Assembly (NCBI GenBank): GCA_050014195.1
Contig: JBEKDT010000008.1
Location: 1-64,000, forward strand
Length of the DNA: 64,000 bases
From: Desulfomonilia bacterium
Lineage (GTDB): Bacteria > Desulfobacterota > Desulfomonilia > UBA1062
Direction: 5' to 3'
Of the stretch, positions 33,521 to 62,431 are shown in pieces. The position numbers and the translations under genes are program-made. The notes beneath the pieces are model-generated. The model did not search any database and was not told the origin of the DNA. It saw nothing but the letters and a program-made list of their open reading frames with translations. The first letter of the stretch is position 1. Each line of letters starts with the position of its first letter.

Positions 33521-33548
33521 CACTTAATTGTGGGTTGTGGGGGGGACT

Positions 33549-35157: not shown

Positions 35158-35196
35158 TACAAATGAGACTTACATAATTTATACATAGTAATTTTA

Positions 35197-37753: not shown

Positions 37754-37755
37754 TG

Positions 37756-38001
37756 CTACCTCTTTGTAGCATCCGTTGCACTGGTACTAGTGAAGGTGGG
37801 CAATGATAAGATGAACGCTTCTAAGTCGGATCGTCTATATCTGATTGACCTTCCTATGCGAGTGAAGGGGATTTTGAGCCGTCCATAGATTCGGTCCTGC
37901 TCGACCGATGAAACGCCCATACCGAGAAATTCGGCTGCCTCTTTGGTGTTGAGTAATTCCTTTTTTGACTGGTACACAGGATTTGTGAAAGCCATGCTCA
38001 A
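37756..38001 (-). CDS. Excisionase/AlpA-like HTH protein
   Basis: LLNTKEAAEFLG..IPFTRIGRSIRYRRSDLEAFI; AAGGAGG RBS. Confidence 0.88.
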   Translation of the reverse strand: MSMAFTNPVYQSKKELLNTKEAAEFLGMGVSSVEQDRIYGRLKIPFTRIGRSIRYRRSDLEAFILSLPTFTSTSATDATKR

Positions 38002-38098
38002 GCCTCCTTTTGTTGTGTGGTGGGTTTGTATTGTGGCTTGAGCAATATCAGATTAGATATGGCAAACAGCTAGCTACGTGCCAAGAAAATGAACAGAG

Positions 38099-38941: not shown

Positions 38942-38969
38942 TTCCCCTCTTGCTTCCCCTTACTAAGAA

Positions 38970-39024
38970 CCATGGCCAGGGCAATGGGGATATTGCCTTT
39001 TCGGTTCGTCAACCTAGGCCATGG
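38970..39024 (-). ncRNA. int-alpA-like structured RNA motif
   Basis: CCAUGGCCUAG-GUUGACGAAC-CGAAAAG-GCAAU..AUUGC-CCUGGCCAUGG multi-stem directly 3' of the integrase; match to the motif is from memory. Confidence 0.65.
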
Positions 39025-39036
39025 ATATGTGATATT

Positions 39037-40269
39037 CTATGCCCTGATCGGGATAACCTTGCCCCTTGTCTCTTTGATTAGGCAAGCCTTCATGATCCTG
39101 TCTGTAACCCTCTGCATGGGCGCTCTAAGCTGTTCAGTCGAAATGATAAGATAACCGGCGGTTACATCATTGCCGGTGTAGTGATTCAAGAGACGCTTCA
39201 AGACGGCATAGCTGACTTCCTGTTCTGCAATGCTGGTGAAAGTCCTTCTCAGGTCATGGAGGCAGAAATCTACCTTGGACATTTCAATCACTGCCTCAAC
39301 TGCGCGTTTAAGCTCTATGAGGTGTTCCTTGCGTTTAAGCTCAGTTAGGTTTTTCTTTGATCCTTGTCCCGGGAAGACCCATTCATTCTCTCTTAATGCA
39401 AGCCTTCGGTTGAATATGTCAAAGAGAGTGTTGGACATGGGCAGGGTGTGCTCCTTGTGATTCTTGGCGATCTCAGCGCGTATGGTGAAGGTCTTATCCT
39501 TCATGTCCACATCCTCCCATTGCAGGGTAAGTATCTCTTGCTCTCTGCATCCTGAGAAGAGAAGGAGGAGTAGGGCGTCACTGGCTATGGGGTTCGAATA
39601 CTTTTTTACAGCATCGTGCCACACCCTCAGTTCATGTTCTTTGATAAGGGTCTGCCTTCTGTTTACCTGAAACCATTGCCTACTTTGTGAAAGCCTCTTG
39701 GTGGGATTCTCGGGCAGGGTTCCATCAGAGATTTCCTGAGCATGATTGTAGATTGCCCTGAAAGTCCTCATAACATTATTTGCTGCAACCGGACTACGTT
39801 CTGACGCTATCTTGAGGTGCCTCTTTGATATGTCATTCTTGCCGATCTCATCAAGAGGCCTGTTCATCCAATCAGAAAGCCACAGATGAAGAAGACAATT
39901 GTAAGTCCTCTTAGTGCCCTCTCTGAGTAAAGGTTTTGAGGTGAAATACTCTTCCATGGCCTTTTTCAAGGTGATACCCCTTATCCGGGCTAGGGCCTTC
40001 TCTCTGTTTGGATTGATACCGTTAGCCATCATGACAAGCTTTTCCCGGGCCTCTTTTCGTGCCTCATCAGGAGTTTTAACGCCATGCTTTCCGATGGTAT
40101 ACCGGATTAATTGCCCGTTCACTCTGCATAGAACAAAATAGATTATGCTACTTTCTGTTACCCGTATGCCGAACCCGGGCAAATCCTCATCGAAGTATTC
40201 AACTCTCTTGTTCCCCTGGGGTGTGGGCAACTTGTCTATGACCGATTTGATGAGCCGGATATTAGCCAT
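39037..40269 (-). CDS. Tyrosine integrase with N-terminal arm-binding domain (P4-like)
   Basis: YFDEDLPGFGIRV arm domain; SGCREQE (R), AKN (K), HDLRRT, LLNH and VTAGY (catalytic Y). Confidence 0.95.
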   Translation of the reverse strand: MANIRLIKSVIDKLPTPQGNKRVEYFDEDLPGFGIRVTESSIIYFVLCRVNGQLIRYTIGKHGVKTPDEARKEAREKLVMMANGINPNREKALARIRGITLKKAMEEYFTSKPLLREGTKRTYNCLLHLWLSDWMNRPLDEIGKNDISKRHLKIASERSPVAANNVMRTFRAIYNHAQEISDGTLPENPTKRLSQSRQWFQVNRRQTLIKEHELRVWHDAVKKYSNPIASDALLLLLFSGCREQEILTLQWEDVDMKDKTFTIRAEIAKNHKEHTLPMSNTLFDIFNRRLALRENEWVFPGQGSKKNLTELKRKEHLIELKRAVEAVIEMSKVDFCLHDLRRTFTSIAEQEVSYAVLKRLLNHYTGNDVTAGYLIISTEQLRAPMQRVTDRIMKACLIKETRGKVIPIRA

Positions 40270-40416
40270 ATATTTGACCTCTCTCCTTCGTGGGTAACAT
40301 ATGGGTAACAGATCGTGCGAAATATGTCAATACTCAACACAAGACATCAATAAGTGATCTTTGTAATATCAGTAAGTTAAATACATATCGTAACACGATA
40401 ATACATAGGCATTTAA

Positions 40417-45130: not shown

Positions 45131-45882
45131 GGCCTCTCCTCCTTTCCGGCTATTCCCACCCCCGATCTCGATGGTGGGTCAGCAGGTCTTTATATAATCT
45201 CCTTCTCCTTAGCTCACCAAACCCTTCACTGCCTCGATGGCCGGTGCAGTGAACAAAGCAACAAGGACTGCATACAGGGCAAAAGAACCGAATTAAGCAG
45301 TATGTATGGATAAGGTGTACTGTTCATAAATTTCTCGGATAACTCATGGATGTTTCTTTCATGCATACTCTCCAACACTGCAAGCTGTTCGGGATCTGCT
45401 CCTCATCCCTCTGCAATATGAAGGATTCTTTTAGAAAATAAACAAGTAATGATAATAAATATACTATTATTAATACATTACACTATTATTAATTATTATC
45501 TTTCGATATTCCGAAAACGATTGTGGAAGTAATGGGGACAATTTCAGACACAAGGTTTTGAGCTTGTTACCATTACTGAGTGTTGGATTCGGAATTTTAG
45601 ATTTAATTGAAACCGTGAGCAGGAGAAGAGAAATGATGCCACGTGTAACGATAAGAGTCCACAATGAAAGATTAGGCCACAGATGTAAAAACTTCAGTAC
45701 GGCTCCATGCATTTTTGTTGAAGTCGAGTGCCGGAGAACCTTTGTCCCAGGACAAGCCGAAATAATCTCAAAACCAAAAACCAATAAGAACTTAAGAGAA
45801 AGGATGATGATGTGTCCAGATCCTATAGGTGAACGAGACCACCATCATTCATATCATAACAACATTTATCAAGGGGGGTAAG

Positions 45883-47916
45883 ATGTTTAAGAATCTGAAA
45901 CTTGGTACAAAGCTCATTTTGGTGGGATCGATCCTGCTATTGGTCCCGATATCAGTCGTGGGTTATCTCGCGGTGAAGCAGGCGAGCAAAGGTCTCTCCG
46001 AGATCGAGGACGAGCAGCTCACAGGTGTCACAAAATCCCTTGCACAGGCAGTCAACAATGCCCTGGAAGGTGAGATGATGGTCGTGAAGGATCTCTCGAT
46101 AAGCCCCGAGACAATACGTGCCGCCATCTCAACCAATGCAGGATCTCAGGGGGCACAGGGTGACATTGCTGCACTCAACCAGAGGCTTGGCCATTTCGCC
46201 CAGACCGACGGGCTGAAGGACAACTCTCAAGTCGTTTATGTTACAGGCCTCGAGGGTAAGGCAATTGCAGCTTCGGTTGAAAAGTACATCGGCGTCTCCT
46301 TTTCAGAAAGACAGTATATCAGGGATGCGCTTGCCGGTAATGTGAATGTCGGCAAAGCCGACGTCAACAAGGTTACCGGAGAGTTGTTTGTCCCCATTGC
46401 CACCCCTATCCATTCTCCGGATGGGAAGATTGTAGGAGCAATTGCAAATATCCTCTCCATCGGTGTGCTTGGTGATCTGATCTCCAACACAAAGGTCGGC
46501 AAGACAGGGTATGCCTGGATGATAGACAAGGAGGGCCGTTTCATCGCCCATCCTGATAAGGCGAACGTGTTGAAGCTTAATGTCTCAAGCCTGGATGGTA
46601 TGGAAGCAATTGCAAAAAAGATGTTATCAGGCCAGTCAGGTGTGGAACGCTATGTCTTCAAGGGGGTTGCGAAGACAGGAGGTTTTGCGCCGGTGGCTCT
46701 GACAGGGTGGAGTATCGGTCTCTCACTGCCTAATGGAGAGTTCCTTGCCCAGGCAAATCAGGTCCGCAACACAGTTCTTATGGTGGGTGTGATATTCTTT
46801 ATAACAGCGCTCGTGGTGTTTTACTTTTTTTCCCGGATCATCACCAATGGTATCCGTAAGGGCGTCGACCTGGCGGTCCATGTGGCGGAGGGGGATCTCA
46901 CCGCAAACATCGACATCCAGCAGAAGGACGAGATCGGCCAGCTGGCGGATGCCTTACGAAACATGATGACCAAGCTCAGGACTATCGTGGCGGATGTCCA
47001 CAGCGCAGCGGACAATGTGGCTGCGGGCAGCGAGCAGATGAGCTCCACGTCGGAGGAGATGTCCCAGGGCGCAAGTGAACAGGCTGCTGCTGCGGAAGAG
47101 GCATCCTCATCCATGGAGCAGATGGCATCCAACATACGCCAGAACGCGGACAATGCCCAGCAGACCGAGAAAATCGCTATTAAATCAGCTGAAGATGCCC
47201 GAGAAGGCGGTAAGGCTGTGGTGGAAACAGTAGCTGCAATGAAGACCATTGCAGAAAAGATAGCCATCATAGAGGAGATCGCCCGACAGACAGACCTTCT
47301 TGCCCTGAATGCCGCCATTGAAGCGGCCCGGGCCGGAGAACACGGCAAGGGCTTTGCCGTGGTTGCTGCTGCGGTGAGGAGGCTTGCAGAAAGATCGGCA
47401 GATGCAGCTGGTGAGATCAGCAAGCTCTCGGTGAGCAGTGTTGCGGTTGCCGAAAAAGCAGGGATGCTCCTTAACCAGATTGTGCCCGATATCCAGAAGA
47501 CCGCCCAACTCGTGCAGGAGATCACCGCAGCGAGTAACGAGCAGAATACCGGAGCGGAGCAGATCAACTCCGCCATCCAGCAGCTCAACCAGGTGGTCCA
47601 GCAGAACGCATCCGCAGCAGAGGAGATGTCTTCCACATCCGAGGAGCTCTCGAGTCAGGCCATGCAGCTCCAGGAGGCGATCTCCTTCTTCAAGATAAAT
47701 AAGGATGCCACGACCACAAAGAAGTCTCTATCCCTCAAAACAGCCAAGGTTGCTCATGTAATCTCGAAACCCCACGTTGTCAATATGCACCATGATGCAC
47801 CCAGGGTACTCAAAGGCAGAGACGAGAGTGCTTCCCGACATGCCGGCGTTCTCATCGACATGAGCGATCAGGAGACCAAGGAAGACGTCAAAGATGGGGA
47901 ATTCGAGCAATACTAA
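45883..47916 (+). CDS. Methyl-accepting chemotaxis protein (dCache, HAMP, MA domains)
   Basis: Two TM helices, KVGKTGYAW Cache, [42 protein letters not shown]. Confidence 0.96.
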
Positions 47917-48066
47917 ATTCGGATCACGGCGTGATGCATGAAGGGAGGTCCGTAAGTAACATGTTGTACAAAGGCATGATCCAGTGCCTCACGTAGGAAT
48001 GAACAGGACCATGGATGAACGACACAATAATGGAGATGGACATATTAACGGAACAAGGAGAAGGCC

Positions 48067-48588
48067 ATGAGTGTGGAAGGAATAATGGATACCAGGCAGT
48101 ACCTTTCGTTCAAACTCGATGAAGAGGAGTTTGCGCTGGATATTTCCAAGGTAAGAGAGGTCCTTGATTTCACGAAGATCACCAAGGTGCCCCAGACCCC
48201 TGCTTTCATGAGGGGAGTGATCAACCTCAGAGGGGCAGTTGTCCCTGTAGTGGATCTCAATAAAAAGTTCGGAATAAAGGATACGGAAAAGACGGTAAAC
48301 ACCAGGATCATAATCGGAGAAGTGGATATTGAAGGAGAGAACATAGTACTCGGAGTGCTTGCGGACTCGGTGCATGAGGTCATGGAACTCGAGCCTGATC
48401 ACATCGAACCAGCGCCGAAGATCGGAACCCGCCTGAACACGGACTTTCTCAAGGGCATGGGGAAGCGGGACGAGGAATTTGTCATGATCCTGGACATCGA
48501 CAAAGTCTTTTCTGCAGACGATCTGGCGATTGTCAACCAAACAAGCCAGGCCTCTGTGAATGCAGGCGAGCTTGACTCCGTTTTGTAA
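48067..48588 (+). CDS. cheW: Chemotaxis coupling protein CheW
   Basis: QYLSFKL..VREV..ITKVP..GVINLRG.VVPVVDL. Confidence 0.96.
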   Translation: MSVEGIMDTRQYLSFKLDEEEFALDISKVREVLDFTKITKVPQTPAFMRGVINLRGAVVPVVDLNKKFGIKDTEKTVNTRIIIGEVDIEGENIVLGVLADSVHEVMELEPDHIEPAPKIGTRLNTDFLKGMGKRDEEFVMILDIDKVFSADDLAIVNQTSQASVNAGELDSVL

Positions 48589-48741
48589 AAAGATCGCTTG
48601 AAATTCATTGGCGAGGTGGCGGTTGATATGGGATCACTGTTCCGGTCCGGTCTGTGAGGGGAGAAGCCCTATGAATTCGGGAAGTGAATGTCCGGCATCA
48701 AGGGACAGTAAAGGCTTTCCAATCATTGAGGAGATGAGCTG

Positions 48742-49605
48742 ATGGAGGACTCTCAGCAATACATCCCTATGAGGGCTGTGATGTCCAATGAGCTTTTCGC
48801 ACACCTTAGCGAGGTTATCTATAACGAGAGCGGCATCAAGATGCCGCTCTCGAAGAAGACCATGCTGGAAGCAAGGCTCATGAAAAGACTCAGATACATC
48901 GGACTTTCGACCCTCGGCGAATACTGCAATTATCTCTTCAGCCCCGAGGGAATGGCCAACGAGCTTGTGCACATGATCGATGTGGTCACCACCAATAAGA
49001 CCGAATTCTTCCGGGAACCCCAGCACTTCGAATACGTCGTGGAGCATGCCATCCCGAATCTCATCAAAGAGACGGGGGCAGGCATCAGAAGAGCCCTCAT
49101 GGTGTGGTCGGCGGCATGCTCTTCCGGTGAGGAGGCCTATACCCTCGCCATGGTCCTGGATGAGTTCTCGAAAAAGGCCCATGGGTTTCACTATATGGTC
49201 CTCGGAACTGATATCTCTACCAGGATGGTAGAGGCCGCGCGTCTCGGGATATACCAAGAAGAACTTGTCGTGCCGGTCCCCATCGACCTTCGCAGGAAGT
49301 ACCTCATGCGGAGCAAGGACCCGCACAGGAAAGAAGTGAGGATTGTTCCTGAACTGAGGGCAAAGGTGAGGTTCCGGCAGCTTAATTTCATGCATGAGGA
49401 CTTCGGCATGCGGGAGAAGATGGATATCATCTTCTGCAGGAACGTACTCATATACTTCGACAGGGCAACCCAGGAAAAGGTTGTGGGCCACCTCTGCAAG
49501 CATCTCGCGGACGGGGGTTACCTTTTCACCGGACACTCCGAGACATTGAGCGGCATGGTTCTCCCCTTGAAGACTGTTGCCAGCACCGTTTCGAGGAGGA
49601 TCTAG
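48742..49605 (+). CDS. cheR: Chemotaxis methyltransferase CheR
   Basis: TTNKTEFFRE, WSAACSSGEEAY, GTDIS, IFCRNVLIYF, GHSE. Confidence 0.96.
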   Translation: MEDSQQYIPMRAVMSNELFAHLSEVIYNESGIKMPLSKKTMLEARLMKRLRYIGLSTLGEYCNYLFSPEGMANELVHMIDVVTTNKTEFFREPQHFEYVVEHAIPNLIKETGAGIRRALMVWSAACSSGEEAYTLAMVLDEFSKKAHGFHYMVLGTDISTRMVEAARLGIYQEELVVPVPIDLRRKYLMRSKDPHRKEVRIVPELRAKVRFRQLNFMHEDFGMREKMDIIFCRNVLIYFDRATQEKVVGHLCKHLADGGYLFTGHSETLSGMVLPLKTVASTVSRRI

Positions 49606-49815
49606 ATGAACAGGAAGATCATAGCGGTGAACAGCCTTTCAGAGATAACTCATGGCGCAGGTTCCTTCTCTCTGGCCCATAAAGGCATCCGCATGGCAGG
49701 CGAACTGCCGGGAGGTGTTGTGAGATCACTTTTTGCAATTGCCCTCACGGCGGAAGCATGCGGCAGAGTATCCCATGGCCCGTGTTTGTGGGCCACAGGA
49801 GGGAAAGATGGGTAA
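49606..49815 (+). pseudogene. Probable deletion remnant (cheB-like start joined to STAS-protein-like C-terminus)
   Basis: Starts right after cheR with MNRKI, ends C..x7..CLW and overlaps the cheY start; cheB is absent from the cluster. Confidence 0.45.
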
Positions 49816-50173
49816 GAAGATCTTGAGCGTAGACGACTCGGCGAGCATCCGGCAGCTGGTCACCTTCACGCTCCAGAATGAGGGTTACGATGTGGTGGAG
49901 GCCGTCGACGGCCAGGACGCGCTCGTCAAGGCAAAGTCCACGACGGTGGACATGGTGATCACGGACCTGAACATGCCCAATGTGGATGGGATACAGTTAA
50001 TCCAGGCCTTAAGATCGGACCCTGCCTTCAAGTTCACGCCCATCGTGATGCTCACCACCGAATCGGCCATGAACAAGAAGGACGCGGGCAAGCAGGCAGG
50101 GGCCACTGGCTGGATCGTGAAACCGTTCAAGCCGGAGCAGCTCATTGCCGTGGTGAAACGGCTGCTCGGGTGA
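49808..50173 (+). CDS. cheY: Chemotaxis response regulator CheY
   Basis: ILSVDDS, ITDLNMP, MLTTES, GWIVKPF. Confidence 0.95.
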   Translation: MGKKILSVDDSASIRQLVTFTLQNEGYDVVEAVDGQDALVKAKSTTVDMVITDLNMPNVDGIQLIQALRSDPAFKFTPIVMLTTESAMNKKDAGKQAGATGWIVKPFKPEQLIAVVKRLLG

Positions 50174-50236
50174 AGGTTCGGAAGGAAAATCCGGTCTCAT
50201 GAAAAGATACATTCATTTTCATTAAGGAAGGCAGAT

Positions 50237-52393
50237 ATGGACGCGCAGAAGAATGTGTACCGGGAAGAGGCATACGAGCTCCTTGCAACCCTTGAAGACG
50301 CCCTCATCGAGCTGGAGCAGCATCCGGAAGACTTAGGTATAGTAGGGAGGGTCTTCCGGGCCATGCATACCATCAAGGGGTCAGGGGCCATGTTCGGCTT
50401 CGATGATATCGCTGCATTCACGCACACCATCGAGACGGTCTATGACCTCATCCGGGACGGGAACCTCAAGGTCAGCCAGGACCTCATCAGTCTGACGCTG
50501 TCTTCCTGCGACCAGATCAAGGCCATGCTGGATGCATCCCAGGGTCTGGTAGCGGCATCCGAGGAGAGGACCCGGGAGCTCGCTCAAGCATTCGTGGGCT
50601 ACCTCCCCCGGGAAGAGGAGCCATTGGATGAAGGCGCTGCGGGGCCTTGCCGCCCTGAACCCCAAGAGGAGGCACCCCGTCCGTTGACCACCTTCCGCAT
50701 CCGCTTCCGGCCGCATAGGGACCTCTTTGCCAACGGAACAAACCCCATCCCGCTCCTGAACGAGCTCAAGGCCCTCGGCGAGAGCGCGATCGTCTGTCAC
50801 ATGGACGACCTACCGGACCTTAAGGCAATCGACCCGGAGGCCTGTTACACGAGCTGGGACATCATCCTGACGACCTTGAGCGACATAAACACTATCAGGG
50901 ACGTGTTCATCTTTGTGGAGGACTCGAGTGAGATCTCGATAGAGCCCGTGGATACGCTCACGCCGAAAGACAATGATGCGGAGTATAAGAAGATGGGAGA
51001 GATCCTGCTGGAGCGGGGGTCCGTTCAGAAGGACGACCTGGACAAGGCGCTGAAAACTCAGAAGCGTCTTGGAGAGGTGCTGGTAGAAGCGGGGACGTTG
51101 GACAAGTCAGAGATCCGCTCCGCCCTTGCCGAGCAGGAACAGGTCAGGTCCGTGAGAAAGAAGCGCGCGGCGGCCGAGGAGACATCGAGCATCCGGGTGC
51201 CGGCAGCTAGGCTCGATGCCCTGGTGAACCTGGTGGGGGAGCTGGTCACGGTCCAGGCGCGACTGACCCAGTTCTCGGCCAGGAAGAGCGACCCGGACCT
51301 CCTGGGCATAGCCGAAGAGGTGGAGAGGCTCAGCGCAGAGCTTCGGGACATCTCCATGGGGATCAGGATGCTGCCCATCGGCACGACCTTCGCAAAGTTC
51401 AAGCGCCTGGTACGCGATCTGACAACGTCGCTGGGCAAGGACATCGACTTCGAGATGGAAGGAGAGGAGACCGAGCTCGACAAGACGGTCATCGACAAGC
51501 TCTCGGATCCGCTGGTCCACCTCATACGCAACAGCATCGATCACGGCATCGAGTCTCCGGATGCCAGGGTTGCCGCCGGAAAACTCAGCCAAGGCACGAT
51601 CAAGCTCTCGGCTCGGCACTCGGGGGCCCATGTGCTCATCTCGATCGCTGATGACGGAAACGGCCTCGATGTTGATGCCATCCGCGCCAAGGCCGTCGAG
51701 AAGGGAATCATCCCCCATGAGGCGGCATTAAGTGAGCATGAAATCAACGAGCTCATCTTCGCACCGGGATTCTCCACTGCCTCGACCGTCACAAGCGTCT
51801 CCGGCAGGGGGGTGGGCATGGATGTCGTGAGGAGCAGCATCGAAGGCCTGAACGGGACCGTTGAGGTCCGCAGCGCCAGGGGCAAGGGCACCACCATCAC
51901 CCTGAAGCTGCCGCTAACCCTAGCCATCATCGACGGGCTCCTGGTGAATATCGCAAACGAGGCCTTCGTCATCCCTTTAGGTGCGGTGGTGGAGTGCGTG
52001 GAGCTGACCGACGCAGAGAGAAACCATGCCCATGGCCGCCACCTCATCAAGGTCCGAGAGGAGATCATCCCCTACATCCCCTTGCGGGAGGTCTTCGGTA
52101 TCAACGGCGGCACCCCCTCCGTTGATCAGGTGGTGATCACCGAGCTCGGGGACAAAAGGGTGGGTTTCGTGGTTGACAAGGTCATCGGCCAGCACCAGAC
52201 CGTGATTAAGACCATGGGCGGCCTCCTCAGGGACATCGAGGGCGTCTCCGGCGCCACCATCCTGGGAGACGGCGCCGTGGCACTCATTTTGGATGTGTAT
52301 AAACTCATGCAACATGTTGAATTAATGGAACTGAATAAATATTGTGGGAATAAGCAGGTTGTTTTAATGGATGATTTGTCCGGATCGTCCTAA
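50237..52393 (+). CDS. cheA: Chemotaxis histidine kinase CheA
   Basis: FRAMHTIKGSG HPt, HLIRNSIDHG, DDGNG, SGRGVGMDVV, LPLTLAII, GATILGDG. Confidence 0.97.
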   Translation: MDAQKNVYREEAYELLATLEDALIELEQHPEDLGIVGRVFRAMHTIKGSGAMFGFDDIAAFTHTIETVYDLIRDGNLKVSQDLISLTLSSCDQIKAMLDASQGLVAASEERTRELAQAFVGYLPREEEPLDEGAAGPCRPEPQEEAPRPLTTFRIRFRPHRDLFANGTNPIPLLNELKALGESAIVCHMDDLPDLKAIDPEACYTSWDIILTTLSDINTIRDVFIFVEDSSEISIEPVDTLTPKDNDAEYKKMGEILLERGSVQKDDLDKALKTQKRLGEVLVEAGTLDKSEIRSALAEQEQVRSVRKKRAAAEETSSIRVPAARLDALVNLVGELVTVQARLTQFSARKSDPDLLGIAEEVERLSAELRDISMGIRMLPIGTTFAKFKRLVRDLTTSLGKDIDFEMEGEETELDKTVIDKLSDPLVHLIRNSIDHGIESPDARVAAGKLSQGTIKLSARHSGAHVLISIADDGNGLDVDAIRAKAVEKGIIPHEAALSEHEINELIFAPGFSTASTVTSVSGRGVGMDVVRSSIEGLNGTVEVRSARGKGTTITLKLPLTLAIIDGLLVNIANEAFVIPLGAVVECVELTDAERNHAHGRHLIKVREEIIPYIPLREVFGINGGTPSVDQVVITELGDKRVGFVVDKVIGQHQTVIKTMGGLLRDIEGVSGATILGDGAVALILDVYKLMQHVELMELNKYCGNKQVVLMDDLSGSS

Positions 52394-53929: not shown

Positions 53930-54445
53930 ATGGAAGCAGGAAACAATGTACCCTGGCGTTGCTGTTTCATTGCATTCCTGACAGTGGTCTTTTTTTCTGC
54001 AAATATGTATGCGGAAGAACAGGATATACCAAAAAAGTTCTTCGTCACGCCGCCCCCGTTCAGTGCAGGCATCTATCCTTGCTCAATGTGCCACAAAGGC
54101 CTGCCCACCAACACACAACCAAGAAAACTTCAAGCCAATATGAACATCCCTCTCAAGCATATGCCCGGCGGCTGGTGCTTCGAATGCCATAATCCGGACA
54201 ACAGGGACAAATTACGGCTCGCGAACGGCACATTGGTCAGCTTTGAGGAATCATACATTCTCTGCGGCCAGTGCCACGGAACGATACTGCGAGAATGGAA
54301 GGCCGGCCTGCACGGGAAGAGGACCGGCATGTGGAACGGCGATAAGCAGTACTATCTTTGCGTAAGCTGCCATTCGCCGCATGAACCGCGGTTTAAGCCG
54401 ATCAAACCGTCTCCACCGCCGGTGAGACCGATGGAGATCAAGTAA
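53930..54445 (+). CDS. Tetraheme cytochrome c (CbcS-like)
   Basis: Four CxxCH motifs: CSMCH, CFECH, CGQCH, CVSCH; N-terminal export signal. Confidence 0.88.
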   Translation: MEAGNNVPWRCCFIAFLTVVFFSANMYAEEQDIPKKFFVTPPPFSAGIYPCSMCHKGLPTNTQPRKLQANMNIPLKHMPGGWCFECHNPDNRDKLRLANGTLVSFEESYILCGQCHGTILREWKAGLHGKRTGMWNGDKQYYLCVSCHSPHEPRFKPIKPSPPPVRPMEIK

Positions 54446-54469
54446 TACATAACGAGGACGAGAAGACCG

Positions 54470-55396
54470 ATGCGAAAAACCGTGAAGAAAATGGATGGAA
54501 TTCATCTTGACCGCAGGACCTTTCTCAAGGGCGTGGCCCTCGGCCTGGCGGGGACAGCGCTCCCGCTGAACAAGGCCGATGCCTCGTTCTGGGAATCGTT
54601 TTTTCAGAAGCACTTTAAGGAAATGAATGATGCCGAGATCAAGCAGGTACTCGGCTGTCTGGAGCGGGAATACGAAGAAAAATATAAAAAAGCGATCAAG
54701 GTGGGCAATCAGAAAGCGATGCCGCGAGTTCTCTTCGGTTACGGGCTCGATCTTTCCCGATGCATCGGCTGCAGGAGATGCGTTTATGCCTGCGTTGAGG
54801 AGAACAATCAATCCAGGGACCCGCAGATCCACTGGATATCGGTCCTCAGATTCAAAAAAGGGGAAAAGTGGGTCGATCTTATAGAATCGGAGAAGTATTA
54901 CAACCCAGAAAAGGTGCCTGAAGAGGGATATTTTTATATGCCGGTTCAGTGCCAGCAGTGTGAGAACCCGCCCTGTGTAAGGGCCTGTCCTACGCAGGCC
55001 ACCTGGAAAGAGCCGGACGGGATCGTGGTCATCGATTACAACTGGTGCATTGGCTGTCGCTACTGCATGGCCGCCTGTCCCTATGGAGCGCGCCACTTTA
55101 ATTGGACCGATCCGGGCCGCAAGTCAGGCGAGATCAATCCGCAGACGCACTATCTCGGGAACCGCCCGCGCTATAAAGGAGTGGTGGAGAAGTGCACCTT
55201 TTGTATCCAGCGGACGAGGAACGGACGTTACCCGGCGTGCGTTGAGGCCTGCCCCGTAGGCGCGCGCAAATTCGGGAACCTCCTTGATCCGAACAGCGAG
55301 ATCAGGTACGCCATTGAGCACAAGCGGGTGTTCCGGTTGAAAGAGGACCTGAATACTTATCCCAAGTTCTATTATTTCTTTGCGTACGGCGTGTAG
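54470..55396 (+). CDS. 4Fe-4S multicluster subunit (NrfC/DsrO/CbcT-like) with Tat-like signal
   Basis: DRRTFLK; CIGCRRC..C, CQQCENPPCVRACP, CIGCRYCMAACP, KCTFC..PACVEACP. Confidence 0.93.
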   Translation: MRKTVKKMDGIHLDRRTFLKGVALGLAGTALPLNKADASFWESFFQKHFKEMNDAEIKQVLGCLEREYEEKYKKAIKVGNQKAMPRVLFGYGLDLSRCIGCRRCVYACVEENNQSRDPQIHWISVLRFKKGEKWVDLIESEKYYNPEKVPEEGYFYMPVQCQQCENPPCVRACPTQATWKEPDGIVVIDYNWCIGCRYCMAACPYGARHFNWTDPGRKSGEINPQTHYLGNRPRYKGVVEKCTFCIQRTRNGRYPACVEACPVGARKFGNLLDPNSEIRYAIEHKRVFRLKEDLNTYPKFYYFFAYGV

Positions 55397-55407
55397 GAGG
55401 CCCACTT

Positions 55408-56640
55408 ATGGCAAGTTTTATCAAAAATTATTTTATTGCCTGGCGTCAGATTTTCATTGGCAACCGGGCTTACTACCTCTGGGTCGGCTTCCTGACGTTT
55501 TTTATTCTCCTCGGACTCAACGCGTATATTGATCAGTACCACCGGGGACTCATAGTAACCGCCATGAGGGATCAGGTTTCGTGGGGGCTGTACCTCTCGA
55601 ATTTCACTTTTCTCGTCGGTGTAGCTGCTGCCGCAGTGCTGCTCGTGGTTCCGGCTTACGTGTATAACTTCAAGCCGATCAAGGAAATCGTGCTGTTCGG
55701 CGAGCTGCTCGCCATCACGGCCATAACCATGTGTATCCTCTTCATCATGATCGACATGGGGCAGCCTTTGCGGGTATGGCATATTTTGCCGTTCATCGGC
55801 GCCATGAATTTCCCTTCGTCACTGCTCACCTGGGACGTGATCGTCTTGAGCGGATATCTCGCCATCAATGTAATCATTGCATTTTACGTTCTCTACCGGC
55901 TTTCGATCGGGAAGGAGTACCGTATGGCCGTGATCAGGCCGCTCATCATTCTGTCCATTCCATGGGCGGTGAGCATCCACACGGTGACGGCGTTCCTCTA
56001 TAACGGACTCTCGGCCAGGCCCTTCTGGAACGCCTCGATCCTGGCCCCGAGGTTTCTTGCTTCGGCGTTCTGTTCCGGACCCGCCATCATGCTGGTCCTG
56101 TTCCAGATCATCAGGAAACGTTCTGAGGTAGAGATCGATAACAAGGCGATCTTCAAAATCGCCGAATTGATCGCCTATGCCATGGCGATCAATTTGTTCC
56201 TTCTGGGCGCAGAGGCATTCAAGGAATTTTATTCGGGCGCCGTTGACAGCTATTCCATCCAGTATCTGTACTTCGGTCTTAATGGGAAAGCGAGTCTGGT
56301 ACCCTGGATGTGGGCCGCATCCCTGTTCAATATCACGGCGTTCTTTCTCTTTCTCTTTCCGAGGACACGTGAGAATTTCACGACACTAAACATCGGATGC
56401 GTGCTGATCATTATGGGCGTGTATATAGAGAAGGGGATCGGGCTTATTGTACCCGGCTTTGTTCCGGATACACTCGGGGAGATTTATGAATACTCTCCGA
56501 CCACATCGGAGATTGTCATTACCATGGGCGTATGGGCTTTCGGTGCGCTTATCTACACGATCCTGCTGAAAATTGCAGTGCCGATCTATACGGGAAAACT
56601 TCGGTTCGAGATAAAAGAACGGAACGTTATCACGCGGTAA
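55408..56640 (+). CDS. NrfD/PsrC-family quinone-interacting membrane subunit (DsrP/CbcU-like)
   Basis: DQVSWGLYLSNFTFLVG, DMGQP.R, SLLTWD, SIHTVTAFL, PRFLASAF. Confidence 0.92.
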   Translation: MASFIKNYFIAWRQIFIGNRAYYLWVGFLTFFILLGLNAYIDQYHRGLIVTAMRDQVSWGLYLSNFTFLVGVAAAAVLLVVPAYVYNFKPIKEIVLFGELLAITAITMCILFIMIDMGQPLRVWHILPFIGAMNFPSSLLTWDVIVLSGYLAINVIIAFYVLYRLSIGKEYRMAVIRPLIILSIPWAVSIHTVTAFLYNGLSARPFWNASILAPRFLASAFCSGPAIMLVLFQIIRKRSEVEIDNKAIFKIAELIAYAMAINLFLLGAEAFKEFYSGAVDSYSIQYLYFGLNGKASLVPWMWAASLFNITAFFLFLFPRTRENFTTLNIGCVLIIMGVYIEKGIGLIVPGFVPDTLGEIYEYSPTTSEIVITMGVWAFGALIYTILLKIAVPIYTGKLRFEIKERNVITR

Positions 56641-56774
56641 TGCCGCAGTCAGCGCCTTGCGTCCGGGGGATGCGCAAATCCTATTCCTGCCAGCAAGCGG
56701 TAGACAAACTCAAAAATATACGAGCCTCCCCTAGCCCTCCACAGGCGCAGATAATTACCCTGTCCCTTTCTCTT

Positions 56775-58151
56775 TCAGAACATCAGCCAGGCCAGGAGAT
56801 AGAGGGTATTGTTGTCCTGGGCATTCCTTCCAGATCCGTCATAGTCGGTATGGGCCCCATTGAATTCGGCGTAGATAATGTACTGCAGGGAGAATTTATA
56901 TTGCTGTTTCAACACGTAATCGAGCTCAAGCAGGTAGCCCTTGCTGTCGGGGCTGCCGTTCTGGCTTCCGCCTACCGGATCGGGTGCGTAGAGGACCGTA
57001 TCCTTGTTGCCGGTGGTTTGAAAGTAGCCCAGTGAGCCCCCGATATCTCCGGCGGGGCTGCGGTAGTAATAGCTGCCGTTCAGCTTGAACGTCTGCAGGG
57101 TATTGGATTCGTTGGCGGACAAGCCCTTGAGAAAGCTGGCGTCCAGCTCCTGTTTCTCATGGATCCAGGTGGTGCGCAGCGTTAGGAGGTGCGGATCGCC
57201 GATGAATTGATACTGGGCGTCGAAGGCCGTGTCGGTAAATCTGTCGGTGGAGCCCTTGCTGGCCCCGTCCGGGAAGATATCGGCCCTCAGGCCGTAGGTG
57301 CCGATCTCGATGTTGTGCTTATCCCAGTTATGTGCCAGTGCCAGTCGCCAGTACGGCACCGCGCCATCCGTCACCATGGTCGGGGTCGAACCGGCGCCCA
57401 GCGGCCGGGTAATGCCGTCAAAGGTGGTACGGTAGACACTCACGCCGCCATAGATCAGGTCGTTCCAGTAGCCATAGGCGCCGATACCGCCGACCTGGGT
57501 GGCGAGTGCACCGTCGATGAGCGTGCCCGCGGCGGGTGTCGGAGCGACGGCCGAGGTTGCGAACGGGAAGCCCCATATGGGCGTGCTGTTCCAGAGATCC
57601 TCCACACCGGGGGCGTTGTTCAGGGTAAGACCATAGGCCGTGTCCTTGTCGCCGATTTTCGTAGTGTTGGCGTAGCGGATGTCCGTCAGGTCCAAAGCGA
57701 TGGAGTTGGCCGTGCCGTCATAGGTCAGCTGCGCCAGGGCCCCGGTGTGTTCGCCGTAGATGCGGCCGCCGTAAAAGACACTGGCCTGCTGAGGCAGGTT
57801 GGTCCGCTCGGTGGCCGTATCTTCAGGATTGTCAAAGGGGGCGACGCCGTTATTCAGGATGCCGCTGTTCTTTTGGAGCGTGGTGTAAGATAACTCCAGC
57901 ATGGCCGACAGCGGCGGTGTATTGGGTTTCGATTGAGCCTGGGTGCTGAAGGCATACCCGTTCATTTTAAAGTTGCGGCCGAAAGGGGTCAACTCGGGAA
58001 AGACGGTATGACATACCGAGCAGGACAATCCGGTTTGATGCCCGAAGCTGGGTACGGCATAGGCCGATTTTTCCGCAAATGTTGCCAGGGAGAAGAAAAG
58101 ACATGCCGCAACCATCACCGCAGTTACGTTGGTAAAGATGTTCTTGAGCAT
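56775..58151 (-). CDS. Cyc2-like fused monoheme cytochrome c / outer-membrane beta-barrel
   Basis: Signal peptide then AVPSFGHQTGLSCSVCHTVFPELTPFGRNFKMNGY; beta-strand-rich body; C-terminal NNTLYLLAWLMF. Confidence 0.85.
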   Translation of the reverse strand: MLKNIFTNVTAVMVAACLFFSLATFAEKSAYAVPSFGHQTGLSCSVCHTVFPELTPFGRNFKMNGYAFSTQAQSKPNTPPLSAMLELSYTTLQKNSGILNNGVAPFDNPEDTATERTNLPQQASVFYGGRIYGEHTGALAQLTYDGTANSIALDLTDIRYANTTKIGDKDTAYGLTLNNAPGVEDLWNSTPIWGFPFATSAVAPTPAAGTLIDGALATQVGGIGAYGYWNDLIYGGVSVYRTTFDGITRPLGAGSTPTMVTDGAVPYWRLALAHNWDKHNIEIGTYGLRADIFPDGASKGSTDRFTDTAFDAQYQFIGDPHLLTLRTTWIHEKQELDASFLKGLSANESNTLQTFKLNGSYYYRSPAGDIGGSLGYFQTTGNKDTVLYAPDPVGGSQNGSPDSKGYLLELDYVLKQQYKFSLQYIIYAEFNGAHTDYDGSGRNAQDNNTLYLLAWLMF

Positions 58152-58184
58152 CGTTCATCCCTCCTTTTTTCTTTAAACCCTGCA

Positions 58185-58523
58185 CTATTTTTTATAGGTA
58201 TGCGTCATGTAATCGATGACCGCCTGGATCTCCTCGGGGGACAGATTGATGGCCGGCATCTTGCCACGGCCATGCAAGATGGAGTCGGTTATCACGCGCT
58301 TGGTGTCCTTTTTCCAGAATTCCGGTGCGAAGGCCGTGGGAGCAGGGTGGAACGCTACCGCCGCCGGACCTTTACCATCGCCTTTCATGCCATGGCAAAT
58401 CTGGCAGTTATTAGAATAAAGATCTTTTCCTTTGTCACTTTTTTCGGATGCTGTGATGAGATCGGATAAAAACATCAGCCCGAACAATAACATCAACAGG
58501 GTACAGATAATTTTTTGTTTCAT
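58185..58523 (-). CDS. Periplasmic monoheme cytochrome c
   Basis: Signal peptide; GKDLYSNNCQICHG..GDG.GP; distal Met in GKMP. Confidence 0.9.
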   Translation of the reverse strand: MKQKIICTLLMLLFGLMFLSDLITASEKSDKGKDLYSNNCQICHGMKGDGKGPAAVAFHPAPTAFAPEFWKKDTKRVITDSILHGRGKMPAINLSPEEIQAVIDYMTHTYKK

Positions 58524-59338: not shown

Positions 59339-62300
59339 TCAGTTGTTCATGAGTTTTATGATGAAGCGTGTGATACCCCCACAGATTATTCCTGCAAACA
59401 CAAAGAAATACATCCCCTGTGGTACAGAATCACTTGATACGGAAGTGGATATGAAACAGCCTCCACCGCCTCCACTCCCTTTACCATCTCCTTCAGATCC
59501 TTTCACCGACACATGTACAGGTATTGTTTGAGGACTGTTTGTAACATTTGTATCTGTTGAAATGACGGTAATGTTCTTGTCATACTCTCCTGCAGCTAGG
59601 CCGGCGGTCTTTAAGTGAACAGTGATCATGGTTTGATCACTAGTCAGAGTCCCACTTAGAGGTGAACCAATAATCCAATCTGCATCGGCGGAAATGGAAT
59701 AATTGAGCGTTCCTTCACCTGAATTCCATATATTAAAACTTTGATCTGCAGCATCAGACCCTTGTGCACATGATACTTGAAGTGATACCGGTTCGATCGA
59801 AAAGGTTGATTTTGCCGGGCTGATGCTGACCGGCTCACTCACCGTCAGGCTCACGGGGATAGTCTGGGGACTGTTTGACGCCCCTGGTGCACTGATGGTT
59901 ATAGTTGCTGGATATGTCCCTGAAACGAGGTCTGAGTTTGCAAAAGAGACAGTTATAACGTTATGCCCGCCGGCGGAGGTTCCGCTTGATGGTGAACATG
60001 ATAGCCATGCAGCGTTATCATAGATTGTATAATTAAGCGTCCCACCTCCTGAGTTCCACACATCAAAAGACTGACTCGATGCATTTGATCCTTTCACGCA
60101 TGTGACTGCCAAAGATGTTGGGGTGGCTGAAATGGATGAGGCTGCTGGAGGAGGAGTTGGTGAATTAACTGTCAGGCTTACCGGTATAGTCAGCGGGGTA
60201 TTTGATGCCCCTGCGGCATTAATGGTGATGCTTGCAGAGTAACTCCCTGCTGTTAGTCCGGTTGTTGCATAACTGATTGTGATGGAGTTATGACCGCTGC
60301 CACTGCACGTGGTGGTGGTTGTTCCTTGCGAAGGGCTGCAAGAGAGCCACGTTTGACTTGTTACGATCGTATAACTCAACGTCCCACCCCCTGAGTTCCA
60401 TACATCAAAAGACCGGCTTGATGGGTTGCTGCCTTGTATACAGGAAGAAGTAAGAGTTGAAGAGACATTATGTGCAATAACAGGAGGGGCTGTTGGATTG
60501 ACATTGAAAGTAACTGGAATAGTCTGGGGAGTATTCGATGCCATCGGATCGGTAATAGTTATTGTTGCAGAATAGGTTCCCGTGGTGAGGGCACTAGTGG
60601 AGTAAAATACCGAAATAGTCTTCTGGTCTGTTGTCCCGTTTGAAGTTCCCGATGCTGTACAGGCAATCCAGGATTGATTGGTAGATATCGAGAAATTGAG
60701 TGTACCGGAACCTGAGTTCCAGATTTGGAATGTTTGGGTTTCTGCGTTACACCCTTGCGAACATGAATTTGTAAGAGATGCAGGAGAACATGATATGGCG
60801 GGAGAGAGGACAGTGAGACTCACCGGGATAGTCTGCGGGCTATTCGATGAGCCCGGGTCTACCATCGTGATATTCGCAGTATAAATCCCTGGGGTAAGGC
60901 TGGAGGTTGTATAATTAACAGTAATGGTTTTTTTATCTGATACACCTGTTGAGGAGCCGCTTGTTGGAGTGCAGGAAACCCAAGTTTGATCAGTTGATAT
61001 CGTGTAATTCACAGTCCCTGCCCCTGAGTTCCAGACTTGGAATGATTGGGCTGCGGCATTGTTCCCATGTGAACATGAATTTGTCAGAGATGTTGGAGAA
61101 CTTGCAATTGTAGGAGGTGAAAGAACTGTGAGGCTCACCGGGATAGTCTGAGGGCTATTCGATGAGCCTTCAGCGTTTATTGTGATAGTCGCCGAGTAGT
61201 TCCCTGGGGCTAAGCTGGAGGTTGTATAATTTACAGTGATAGTTTTCTGATCTGATGCACCCGTTGAAGTGCCGCTTGCAGGAGTGCAGGATACCCAAGT
61301 TTGATCAGTTGAAATCGTGTAATTCAGAGTCCCTGTCCCTGAGTTCCAGACTTGGAACGATTGGGCAGGGGCATTATTTCCTCCTTGGCATGAACTAGTA
61401 AGAGATGTTGGAGAGGAAGATAGTACTTGTGGGATCGAGTAGGTTATATCGAGTGTCCAAAAGTTGAAGCTGTATCCCTGTTGATGGCTTCCTATTTTAT
61501 AAATACAATCATAATTCATGTTCATATCGAGGTGAAATAATCCGTTTGGTCTGCCTGAGGTTACACCCCAGCTGTTCACTATGATCCAATAGGAGTTGTT
61601 GGGATCTTCATCATTGTAACCAACACAGAGGACCGCATGGCCCCAGCCATAAAGATTTGAATAGGTATCACCACAGGAGAAATCGGGATTCCAAATTGTG
61701 TCTTCTGTTTGAGAATCCCAAAAGTCAATAAAGTTATTGCCATCTGCCTGTGTAGGCATGACAAAACTGAAATAAACAGCCTCATTCTGATTGAGTATGC
61801 TCTTAATATTTGCAATGGCTGTATCCTGACCGACGCCATGAGTCGGTATTGTTACAGCTGTTATCGATGAAATGGGATAATTAGGATTGGTACTGATAGA
61901 TGAGCCTGGAGTATTACATGAGGCATCTCCATCCTGCCAGTTTGCATTTGTATTAGACCAGGGTATGGCTTGCTGGTATCCGGGAGTTAAATAAAAATCG
62001 ACCAGAGATGGAAGGTCGCCACCTGAGCAACATGTTAACCCGATCGCAGTTGCGTTTGAATTAAGATATTGGACAGAGAGTCTGTCGTATATTTGGTTAT
62101 TTACATCGAGGGCAATGGCCATTACCCCTGTCCCTGCCCACGTCCAACAGTCTCCGCACTGACCCTGATCATATTCAGAAGGGATATAATCAAGATGGCT
62201 TAATAAACTCAGTGAGCTGCTTGTTCCACTGGCATACTGTACATACTTGTTCATCTGTGCTTGTGGAGCTTTTTGATATTTCTGTTCCCAATTGATCAGG

Positions 62301-62431
62301 GTTTCACTGTCAGGCCGCATTACACCATGCGCGCTTCTAAAATCATCTGCTTGAGCAGTTGGAAGAATACCGGCTAAGAAAATAAGGAAGAGTATCGCAA
62401 TATTGGTAAATGATTTCTTAAGATCAATCAT
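59339..62431 (-). CDS. Papain-like C1 cysteine peptidase with six BACON/Ig-like repeats and C-terminal GGGGG-CFI anchor
   Basis: DQGQCGDCW, GHAVLCVGY, WIIVNSWG catalytic motifs; six F.(V/I)WNSG.GT repeats; GGGGGCFIST plus TM helix. Confidence 0.9.
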   Translation of the reverse strand: MIDLKKSFTNIAILFLIFLAGILPTAQADDFRSAHGVMRPDSETLINWEQKYQKAPQAQMNKYVQYASGTSSSLSLLSHLDYIPSEYDQGQCGDCWTWAGTGVMAIALDVNNQIYDRLSVQYLNSNATAIGLTCCSGGDLPSLVDFYLTPGYQQAIPWSNTNANWQDGDASCNTPGSSISTNPNYPISSITAVTIPTHGVGQDTAIANIKSILNQNEAVYFSFVMPTQADGNNFIDFWDSQTEDTIWNPDFSCGDTYSNLYGWGHAVLCVGYNDEDPNNSYWIIVNSWGVTSGRPNGLFHLDMNMNYDCIYKIGSHQQGYSFNFWTLDITYSIPQVLSSSPTSLTSSCQGGNNAPAQSFQVWNSGTGTLNYTISTDQTWVSCTPASGTSTGASDQKTITVNYTTSSLAPGNYSATITINAEGSSNSPQTIPVSLTVLSPPTIASSPTSLTNSCSHGNNAAAQSFQVWNSGAGTVNYTISTDQTWVSCTPTSGSSTGVSDKKTITVNYTTSSLTPGIYTANITMVDPGSSNSPQTIPVSLTVLSPAISCSPASLTNSCSQGCNAETQTFQIWNSGSGTLNFSISTNQSWIACTASGTSNGTTDQKTISVFYSTSALTTGTYSATITITDPMASNTPQTIPVTFNVNPTAPPVIAHNVSSTLTSSCIQGSNPSSRSFDVWNSGGGTLSYTIVTSQTWLSCSPSQGTTTTTCSGSGHNSITISYATTGLTAGSYSASITINAAGASNTPLTIPVSLTVNSPTPPPAASSISATPTSLAVTCVKGSNASSQSFDVWNSGGGTLNYTIYDNAAWLSCSPSSGTSAGGHNVITVSFANSDLVSGTYPATITISAPGASNSPQTIPVSLTVSEPVSISPAKSTFSIEPVSLQVSCAQGSDAADQSFNIWNSGEGTLNYSISADADWIIGSPLSGTLTSDQTMITVHLKTAGLAAGEYDKNITVISTDTNVTNSPQTIPVHVSVKGSEGDGKGSGGGGGCFISTSVSSDSVPQGMYFFVFAGIICGGITRFIIKLMNN

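Follow-up and report, generated by a model that had tools for sequence, protein, structure and literature searches.

A Cyc2-family cytochrome-porin cassette adjoining a DsrOP-type cytochrome/Fe-S/NrfD trio in a Desulfomonilia bacterium: a candidate surface-to-quinone electron route

The window analysed here is a stretch of 64,000 nucleotides from a Desulfomonilia bacterium (NCBI GenBank assembly GCA_050014195.1, contig JBEKDT010000008.1, positions 1 to 64,000). Reading of its open reading frames (ORFs) showed five intact genes at 53930-58523, arranged as two convergent units with a spacer of 134 base pairs between them. The minus strand carries a cassette of a monohaem cytochrome c and a Cyc2-family outer-membrane cytochrome-porin (the barrel); the plus strand carries a trio of a tetrahaem cytochrome, an Fe-S protein, and an NrfD-family membrane protein. 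The two units may form one surface-to-quinone electron chain in this lineage, a proposition that we hold at about even chances and in which the coupling is what we infer. The identities of the parts, their intactness, and their adjacency in four congeners are observed; four of the five genes are under purifying selection, and the tetrahaem gene is relaxed. The sequence-only reading of this DNA had described five genes in convergent units, the lack of a molybdopterin catalytic subunit, and a selB-bearing host, all of which the ORFs and profile searches bear out. The selB gene lies inside the window at 20445-22319. No molybdopterin subunit was found at the locus; the six PF00384 matches of the genome are all on other contigs, and the contig has no MopB match.

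The barrel gene (56775-58151, minus strand) encodes a fused monohaem cytochrome-porin of 458 amino acids (aa), with a signal peptide, an AVPSFGHQT signature, a CSVCH haem motif, a PEL motif, a predicted 16-strand barrel, and a C-terminal Phe. Judged by its sequence and its predicted structure, the protein belongs to the Cyc2 family of fused cytochrome-porins. Its N-terminus reads P-S-F-G-H-Q-T-G-L-S-C-S-V-C-H-T-V-F-P-E-L-T-P-F-G-R-N-F-K-M-N-G-Y, and its C-terminus is LMF. The Pfam/NCBIfam profile search matched the barrel to no family. A word-indexed search found 4835 homologues at E<=1e-3 among 8000 scored candidates, and an exhaustive search found 3061 representative clusters at E<=1e-3, of which 448 reach E<=1e-30; in the host genome the gene is single-copy. 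The homology is full-length and extends to thousands of proteins carrying the AXPXFAR[Q/K][T/Y] signature. A diverse alignment of 54 members has the consensus N-terminus P-S-F-A-R-Q-T, three residues ahead of CXXCH, followed by P-E-L. Structure prediction had been proposed with the sequence-only reading, and the AlphaFold2 model built from this alignment (predicted score of the local distance difference test, pLDDT, 90.8; predicted template modelling score 0.87) has exactly 16 strands and, at the N-terminus, a short helical domain. Because of the many representative clusters and the pLDDT of this model, the barrel is not a chance ORF. The Foldseek search against the PDB showed that the model resembles 16-strand general porins (template modelling score 0.40-0.47); OprP/OprO, the porins named by Keffer, were not among the 50 matches listed. 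The PDB sequence search with the barrel gave no match, and by sequence no Cyc2 structure was found there.

The features of Cyc2 are given by Keffer 2021 (mBio) as a signal peptide, one CXXCH, AXPXFAR[Q/K][T/Y] upstream of it, PXL four residues downstream, at least 365 residues, and a 16-strand porin; the upstream motif is termed "unique to Cyc2" in that paper. The barrel has a hydrophobic leader that ends in AYA, and CSVCH at residues 44-48 is its sole CXXCH. The PXL motif follows (H48, T-V-F, P52-E-L54), with L54 invariant and P52 nearly so in the 54-sequence alignment. The protein exceeds the minimum length, and the 16 strands lie between residues 81 and 457. Its signature matches five of the seven specified positions; Ala is replaced by Gly, and Arg by His. 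The Cyc2 identity claimed in the sequence-only reading stands as family membership, through the homologues, PXL, CXXCH, and the 16-strand model, but the signature deviates at these two positions, and the exact-motif screen as described in Keffer 2021 would discard the sequence. The signature pattern was located in 248 of 269 stored homologues, of which 162 have FARQT; variants are frequent, such as FERQT (14) and FKRQT (11). FGHQT occurs in two of the 248, which are the nearest relatives (93% and 87% identity). Closer forms of the signature are found in relatives that are 59-68% identical, with FARQT at 59-64% and FGRQT at 68%.

The named Cyc2 proteins (A. ferrooxidans Cyc2, Mariprofundus Cyc2PV-1, Leptospirillum Cyt572, and Ghiorsea Cyc2TAG1_1) share with the window protein a signal peptide, a single CXXCH on a short N-terminal domain, PXL, more than 365 residues, and a barrel predicted to have 16 strands. 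Cyc2 systems and the window are also alike in having a small cytochrome c gene alongside. Unlike the named proteins, the barrel carries the AVPSFGHQT signature, and its host is an anaerobe with no haem-copper oxidase and almost no other cytochromes. Family members in other genomes were taken as the best 80 of 585 confirmed Cyc2-family loci. No recognised iron oxidiser is among these 80 loci; they include metagenome-assembled genomes (MAGs) labelled delta-proteobacteria, Acidobacteria, Rhizobiales, Bacteroidetes, and Thermodesulfovibrionales, and the isolates Paraburkholderia kururiensis, Ralstonia psammae, and Methylomicrobium lacus. This breadth agrees with Keffer 2021, where Burkholderia, Ralstonia, and Xanthomonas sequences are described as needing thinning. 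Cyc2 homologues in Desulfobacterota-related MAGs are noted in surveys (PMC8114936, PMC9769843). The Cyc2 family extends far beyond iron oxidisers. The cyc2 gene serves as a metagenome marker gene for iron oxidation. Because relatives occur in many non-iron-oxidising groups, caution is needed with this marker, and a cyc2 match alone should not be taken to mean iron oxidation.

The monohaem cytochrome c gene (58185-58523, minus strand) lies directly upstream of the barrel gene and is co-directional with it. It encodes a periplasmic class-I cytochrome with a CQICH motif and a downstream Met in GKMP (Pfam Cytochrome_CBB3 and Cytochrom_C). The coordinate 58523 is the ATG of MKQKII, and the ORF is extendable to a TTG at 58556. 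The trio is on the plus strand. Its first gene (53930-54445) encodes a 171-aa tetrahaem c-type cytochrome (Pfam Cytochrome_C7 and Paired_CXXCH_1); the protein has four CXXCH motifs and, at its N-terminus, a hydrophobic stretch that would serve as anchor or signal. The second gene (54470-55396) encodes a 308-aa Fe-S protein of the DsrO/NrfC/PsrB class (Pfam Fer4_11). Four [4Fe-4S]-type Cys clusters were read straight from its sequence; a twin-arginine leader was recognised by its RR motif by eye, and the Pfam TAT_signal match is weak and below the cut-off (E 0.0035, 17.6 vs 22.7 bits). The third gene (55408-56640) encodes a 410-aa NrfD-family integral membrane subunit of the quinone-interacting type (PF03916, 126 bits).

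The sequences make the trio a paralogue of DsrOP, in the form of a tetrahaem/4x[4Fe-4S]/NrfD module without a catalytic subunit. DsrO and DsrP of DsrMKJOP are the closest curated sequence families. The NrfD protein scores 425.8 bits against the NCBIfam DsrP equivalog (NF045798, cut-off 350), and the Fe-S protein scores 195.5 bits against NCBIfam DsrO, just under the cut-off of 200. Canonical DsrMKJOP operons of the sister family and of a second genus in this family give higher scores, 451-493 for DsrP and 319 for DsrO. The tetrahaem cytochrome has no match to the DsrJ model NF038038, against which true trihaem DsrJ scores 159-172 bits. Searches of the host genome found no dsrA and no DsrK above the cut-off. 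Compared with DsrMKJOP, the window has no DsrM, K, J, A, or B, and its cytochrome has four haems, not three. Sister-family genomes hold both a trio-type NrfD protein (56-64% identical to that of the window) and a true DsrP (42-46%); since the two co-exist there, the trio is taken as a distinct paralogue and not a Dsr remnant. The NF045798 model thus passes a non-Dsr paralogue (55408-56640) and its relatives at 397-426 bits, in a genome with no dsrA or DsrK. This is an annotation trap, and automated naming of the NrfD protein as a sulfate-reduction subunit is probable.

A similar layout is described for Cbc4 of Geobacter sulfurreducens (GSU0068-0070), in which CbcS is an anchored tetrahaem cytochrome, CbcT carries four [4Fe-4S] clusters, and CbcU is integral to the membrane; Cbc4 is proposed as a quinone:cytochrome c oxidoreductase and viewed as a quinol oxidase (bioRxiv 10.1101/2025.04.14.648717). 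Cbc4 and the trio have the same three parts and no catalytic subunit, a likeness of the described layout. The resemblance to CbcSTU in the sequence-only reading holds for the layout as described for Cbc4, but the sequence points to a DsrOP paralogue. CbcS is reported with four bis-His haems, whereas the window tetrahaem has only three conserved spare His residues; unlike Cbc4, the trio has a Cyc2 cassette as its neighbour. The PDB sequence search identified the ActC chains of alternative complex III (ACIII; 8k9e, 6f0k, and 6btm) as the closest solved relatives of the NrfD protein (E 7e-10). For the tetrahaem cytochrome, the closest solved relative is NrfB, a weak match (E 0.0017). The NrfD protein is a distant ActC relative, but the trio does not have the composition of ACIII: ActB (with its MopB-like domain), ActD, ActE, and ActF are all absent from the three-gene unit.

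The host genome (100% complete, 29 contigs) contains strikingly few c-type cytochromes. It has three ORFs with at least two CXXCH motifs: an octahaem cytochrome on contig C12, a 610-aa protein on contig C21, and the window tetrahaem. The window NrfD protein is the sole PF03916 match and the sole DsrP-model match of the genome; the window monohaem cytochrome is its sole PF13442 (Cytochrome_CBB3-type) match. No haem-copper oxidase (COX1) was found in the host genome, and tblastn of the genome with three queries from other Cyc2 loci detected neither a cytochrome b nor a Rieske protein nor a dihaem c4. The genome does have haem attachment genes of the CcsA type (two PF01578 matches) and two cytochrome bd quinol oxidases. 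By elimination of these cytochrome and oxidase alternatives, the trio is the only inner-membrane complex with periplasmic haem that the monohaem cytochrome could serve; among the partners searched, the adjoining trio would be its inner-membrane partner. The lone octahaem cytochrome (795 aa, C12:29897-32284) is the only other large multihaem cytochrome, and it has no obvious redox neighbours. A molybdopterin enzyme at C14:108134-109405 contains an in-frame TGA, which fits the selB gene of the window. The stretch is present in 20 DNA runs from peat or wetland, which belong to 19 studies; the majority of these runs are flagged as possible sources of the DNA itself. The habitat is anoxic peat.

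The proposed chain would link dissolved iron or small redox species, the Cyc2-like haem, the monohaem cytochrome c, the tetrahaem cytochrome, the four Fe-S clusters, and NrfD with quinone, in either direction. The first unit would be a two-gene cassette of a periplasmic class-I monohaem cytochrome c and an outer-membrane haem-porin, with one c-type haem on a short N-terminal domain. The second unit would be a three-gene inner-membrane complex, Cbc4-like and resembling a cut-down ACIII, which might move electrons between the menaquinone pool and periplasmic cytochromes. The monohaem cytochrome would pass electrons to or from the tetrahaem cytochrome. The sequence-only reading had seen every step from the surface to quinone in these genes; the five genes could span the outer membrane, the periplasm, and the quinone pool, but the coupling of the steps is a conjecture. 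The haem-porin would exchange electrons with small dissolved species only, such as Fe2+/Fe3+ complexes. As Keffer 2021 argues, a single haem in a 16-strand barrel points to dissolved iron only, not minerals or partner cells; with its one haem, the barrel is unlikely to serve Fe minerals or a syntrophic partner, as had been suggested in the sequence-only reading.

The direction of flow would be outward by a slight lean, so that quinol is oxidised and Fe(III)-organic complexes dissolved in anoxic peat are reduced. This lean is taken because the genome has no oxidase for cytochrome c and because relatives of the trio stand beside large multihaem cytochromes. Large multihaem cytochrome neighbours are typical of outward electron transfer. 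The anoxic peat habitat and the view of Cbc4 as a quinol oxidase also favour this direction. The measured Cyc2 potentials given in PMC13692758 are -130 mV (Ghiorsea), +208 mV (PV-1), and +560 mV (A. ferrooxidans); since they range so widely, the Cyc2 family alone leaves the direction unfixed.

The history of the two units was compared across 14 congeners (G002, G003, G011, and G013 denote congener genomes, and G000 the genome of the window). A Cyc2-like gene occurs in G002, G003, and G011, with a fragment in G013; the trio occurs in G002, G003, and G011. G003 has the layout of the window, with 91-99% protein identity. In G011, the trio is followed by a decayed Cyc2 remnant (L026:4040-4340), which is a C-terminal piece containing stop codons, and by an intact monohaem gene; on another contig, both genes of a monohaem-Cyc2 pair are intact. 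In G002, a full Cyc2 gene lies directly upstream of the trio, co-directional with it and preceded by a 3' monohaem remnant; downstream of the trio are a full monohaem gene and then a Cyc2 5' remnant of the first ~20 codons (L024:13480-13800). G013 has a short internal Cyc2 piece beside a piece of the monohaem gene (L033:5400-6040). The monohaem/Cyc2 cassette has been gained, swapped, and lost within the genus.

The trio stands beside a convergent monohaem(+Cyc2) cassette in all four carriers (G000, G002, G003, and G011). The trio-adjacent cassettes are of two types, 47-49% identical to each other, and the trio is 89-99% identical over the four genomes; beyond the locus, the flanks of G000 and G002 are different. 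The cassette was kept beside the trio through a change of cassette type and altered surroundings, which gives modest support for a functional link. The ratios of nonsynonymous to synonymous substitution (dN/dS) are 0.13-0.26 for the Fe-S protein and 0.11-0.18 for NrfD over the four congeners, and 0.22 for Cyc2 and 0.20 for the monohaem cytochrome (Cyc2 compared with G003). With ratios of this size, these four genes are maintained. Synonymous divergence was also compared for G000 and G003; it amounts to 0.16-0.19 in the Cyc2 and monohaem genes, and to 0.02-0.06 in the Fe-S and NrfD genes. The two units may have had separate recombination histories, even between these two genomes.

Relatives of each unit were also placed in their neighbourhoods in other genomes. 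A trio-type NrfD protein (E<=1e-120) was found in 54 of 400 other genomes of the phylum, the best being 66% identical. Twenty trio regions were taken from this sample, and crude gene calls recovered the NrfD ORF in 17. The full order of tetrahaem, Fe-S protein, and NrfD is present in 9 of the 17; in the same number, a cytochrome with at least six haems lies within two genes of NrfD. A MopB enzyme lies within three genes of NrfD in 3 of the 17. Sister-family trios have a TtrA-like Mo-enzyme operon behind them or an octahaem cytochrome ahead of them; in L028 and L029, a TtrA-like MopB enzyme, an Fe-S protein, and a chaperone follow the trio directly. The trio looks like a general quinone-to-periplasm adaptor, or socket, whose neighbour gene is its redox partner, because its relatives adjoin multihaem cytochromes or Mo-enzymes. 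The Cyc2-like gene is rare in the phylum (3 of the 400 other genomes).

The census of Cyc2 neighbours covered 79 loci, from the best 80 of 585. Of these, 13 have a dihaem cytochrome c near Cyc2, which is at +1 in 10 of them. A cytochrome b fused to several cytochrome c domains is likewise near Cyc2 in 13 loci, 10 times at +2; a Rieske protein is near it in 8 (7 at +1), and a monohaem cytochrome c in 11 (8 at -1). Cyc2-family genes often adjoin a quinone-interacting or membrane-anchored partner. Among the nine loci listed first (L034-L042), a homologous monohaem gene lies directly upstream of the barrel in eight. A DUF2231-cytochrome c fusion is at +1 in five loci of the closest Cyc2 clade. In these loci (L035, L037, L038, L039, and L042), the monohaem cytochrome c, Cyc2, and the fusion of a DUF2231 membrane domain with cytochrome c form a conserved unit. 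The window has no DUF2231-cytochrome c gene; the trio stands in that direction instead.

Several findings weigh against the coupling of the two units into one chain. The convergent layout means that they are not one operon, and the tetrahaem gene, through which the chain would run, has relaxed dN/dS (0.57-0.83). By the co-occurrence test that the sequence-only reading had set for its own refutation, the units were found together, in the genomes and loci searched, only in one subclade of the genus: the trio adjoins the barrel in one of the best 80 of 585 Cyc2-family loci, which is the congener G002; a Cyc2-like or monohaem neighbour is present in none of the 17 trio regions; and none of the three phylum genomes with a Cyc2-like gene has an NrfD match on the same contig. 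The co-occurrence within the genus was rejected as independent support, since the flanking isochorismatase gene has nearly the same distribution (G002 and G003), which makes the carriers one subclade and the pattern a single event. The co-directional layout of G002 was likewise rejected as a second independent association; the remnants and flank homologies point to recombination between two paralogous cassettes. The Cyc2 pseudogene beside the trio in G011, and the loss of the downstream Cyc2 in G002, counter a strict requirement for the pair. The trio of the window could be the residue of a Mo-enzyme operon like that of the sister family. The three biochemically tested Cyc2 proteins all oxidise Fe(II) (Keffer 2021; PMC13692758), which speaks against the outward lean.

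The strongest competing explanation is that the units are chance neighbours, which we consider possible but clearly less probable than one chain. The trio would then be a free-standing or leftover quinone:cytochrome module, with its real partner elsewhere (for example, the octahaem cytochrome on C12) or lost with a Mo-enzyme operon, and the cassette would be a mobile unit. The restriction of the pairing to a single subclade and the convergent arrangement, with no co-transcription, are consistent with chance, as is the order of L028 and L029, where the same trio leads directly into a TtrA-like MopB enzyme, an Fe-S protein, and a chaperone. The decay of Cyc2 in G011, its absence downstream of the trio in G002, and its remnant in G013 point the same way; the unequal synonymous divergence suggests separate histories, and the composition of the window is mosaic, with integrases and a transposase. 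However, no other inner-membrane partner for the monohaem cytochrome was found in the genome, and the cassette remains beside the trio in four genomes despite differing outer flanks and a change of cassette type. The Fe-S and NrfD genes are under purifying selection, and both gene families habitually adjoin redox partners, neither of which is favourable to chance. The reading as one chain is retained ahead of it.

A change in the tetrahaem cytochrome may bear on the direction of such a chain. In the alignment of seven trio cytochromes, three spare His residues are invariant (H77, H128, and H151). Another His is conserved in five of the seven (G002, G011, and three of the sister family); it corresponds to Asn70-Met71 in the window (54137-54142) and in G003. 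Because just three other spare His residues are invariant, the replaced residue probably ligates a haem on the distal side. In that case, one haem would have switched from His/His to His/Met ligation, or lost its sixth ligand; if Met71 ligates, the haem potential would rise. The Asn-Met change is confined to the same two genomes, the window's and G003, whose Cyc2 has the Gly-His signature. With two lineages compared, this coincidence may reflect co-adaptation or chance.

The same chain might instead run inward, an explanation that we regard as unlikely and rank somewhat below chance adjacency. The Cyc2-like protein would oxidise dissolved Fe(II) or Fe(II)-organics, and electrons would pass through the NrfD complex to quinone, with the membrane potential helping if needed, and on to oxygen by way of a bd oxidase at oxic-anoxic interfaces of peat. 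All characterised Cyc2 proteins are Fe(II) oxidases, the reported Cyc2 potentials extend down to -130 mV, and the iron-oxidiser models of Kato 2015 place an NrfD-type ACIII and a bd oxidase after Cyc2 and Cyc1. The cytochrome/Fe-S/NrfD trio of Ferrigenium is described as strongly induced under conditions of Fe(II) oxidation with nitrate reduction. The genome has two bd oxidases, and the replacement of the distal His by Asn-Met in the tetrahaem cytochrome would also fit, if Met ligates and raises the haem potential. Against this, established redox chemistry makes the step to menaquinone steeply uphill for electrons on a typical class-I cytochrome c. There is no cytochrome c oxidase to pay for it through a downhill branch, and the relatives of the trio in the phylum adjoin large multihaem cytochromes.

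A specific outward version is a Cyc2 haem-porin run in reverse, which appears improbable as a complete scheme, more so than inward flow. Electrons would pass from quinol through NrfD, the Fe-S protein, and the tetrahaem cytochrome to the monohaem cytochrome, Cyc2, and Fe(III)-organics. The cassette would occupy the socket that large multihaem cytochromes fill in relatives, and the Gly-His and Asn-Met changes would be co-adaptations that tune potentials. Finally, an origin of the trio as a leftover of DsrMKJOP, the sulfate-reduction complex to which automated annotation would point, has next to no probability and was ruled out: the NrfD protein passes the DsrP model, the Fe-S protein nearly passes that of DsrO, and canonical DsrMKJOP occurs in a genus of the same family and in the sister family, but the genome has neither dsrA nor a DsrK above the cut-off, the cytochrome has four haems and no DsrJ match, and trio NrfD and true DsrP are separate paralogues in sister-family genomes.

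The concept of the proposed chain has precedents. The Cyc2-Cyc1-ACIII model of neutrophilic iron oxidisers is over a decade old (Kato 2015); in it, as in the window, Cyc2 in the outer membrane is combined with a cytochrome c in the periplasm and a quinone complex of the NrfD type. Ferrigenium straubiae SU1-SU3 (described in 2026) is reported to lack a Mo subunit and to consist of an NrfD-like subunit together with a multihaem cytochrome and a 4x[4Fe-4S] protein; its cytochrome has six haems, compared with four in the window tetrahaem. The novelty that the sequence-only reading had attached to pairing these modules is thereby lost, since Cyc2 with an NrfD-type ACIII is already the standard iron-oxidiser model and a comparable trio is known in Ferrigenium. 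The hosts of these systems are described as aerobic or nitrate-reducing lithoautotrophs with cbb3 oxidases, whereas the window host has none. In contrast to both systems, the two units of the window are physically adjacent, and a full-text literature search for Cyc2 with NrfD met no description of this adjacency in the text it covered. What is new is a DsrOP-type trio together with a Cyc2 cassette in a cytochrome-poor anaerobe that has no dsrA and no haem-copper oxidase. A clear Cyc2-family member stands here beside the only quinone-coupled cytochrome complex of the genome. If the two units cooperate, they would be among the simplest genetically defined routes from the cell exterior to quinone. 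They would then offer a tractable five-protein system, with 1 + 1 + 4 haems, for asking whether Cyc2 runs either way.

Sequence scans for regulatory elements gave nothing decisive, with six promoter-like sites compared with 7.4 +/- 3.2 in shuffles, and 11 terminator-like sites compared with 5.9 +/- 2.5. Upstream of the locus is a chemotaxis cluster (45829-52393) encoding a dCache-type chemoreceptor, CheR, a CheY-like receiver, and CheA; a single isochorismatase-family gene parts it from the locus. On the other side, at 59339-62431, a secreted protein of 1030 aa is encoded, in which a papain-like peptidase C1 domain precedes five or more BACON_2/Ig-like repeats and the C-terminus forms a hydrophobic tail. 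Its match in G003 is split over two adjacent segments, which suggests a frameshift there. The mosaic composition of the window includes a low-GC stretch (0.38) at 33500-40300, which encodes a helix-turn-helix/IrrE-like pair and a Sel1-repeat protein; a full tyrosine integrase occupies 39037-40269 of this stretch. Another integrase, which is shorter, accompanies a DDE transposase at 8.8-11.1 kb of the window.

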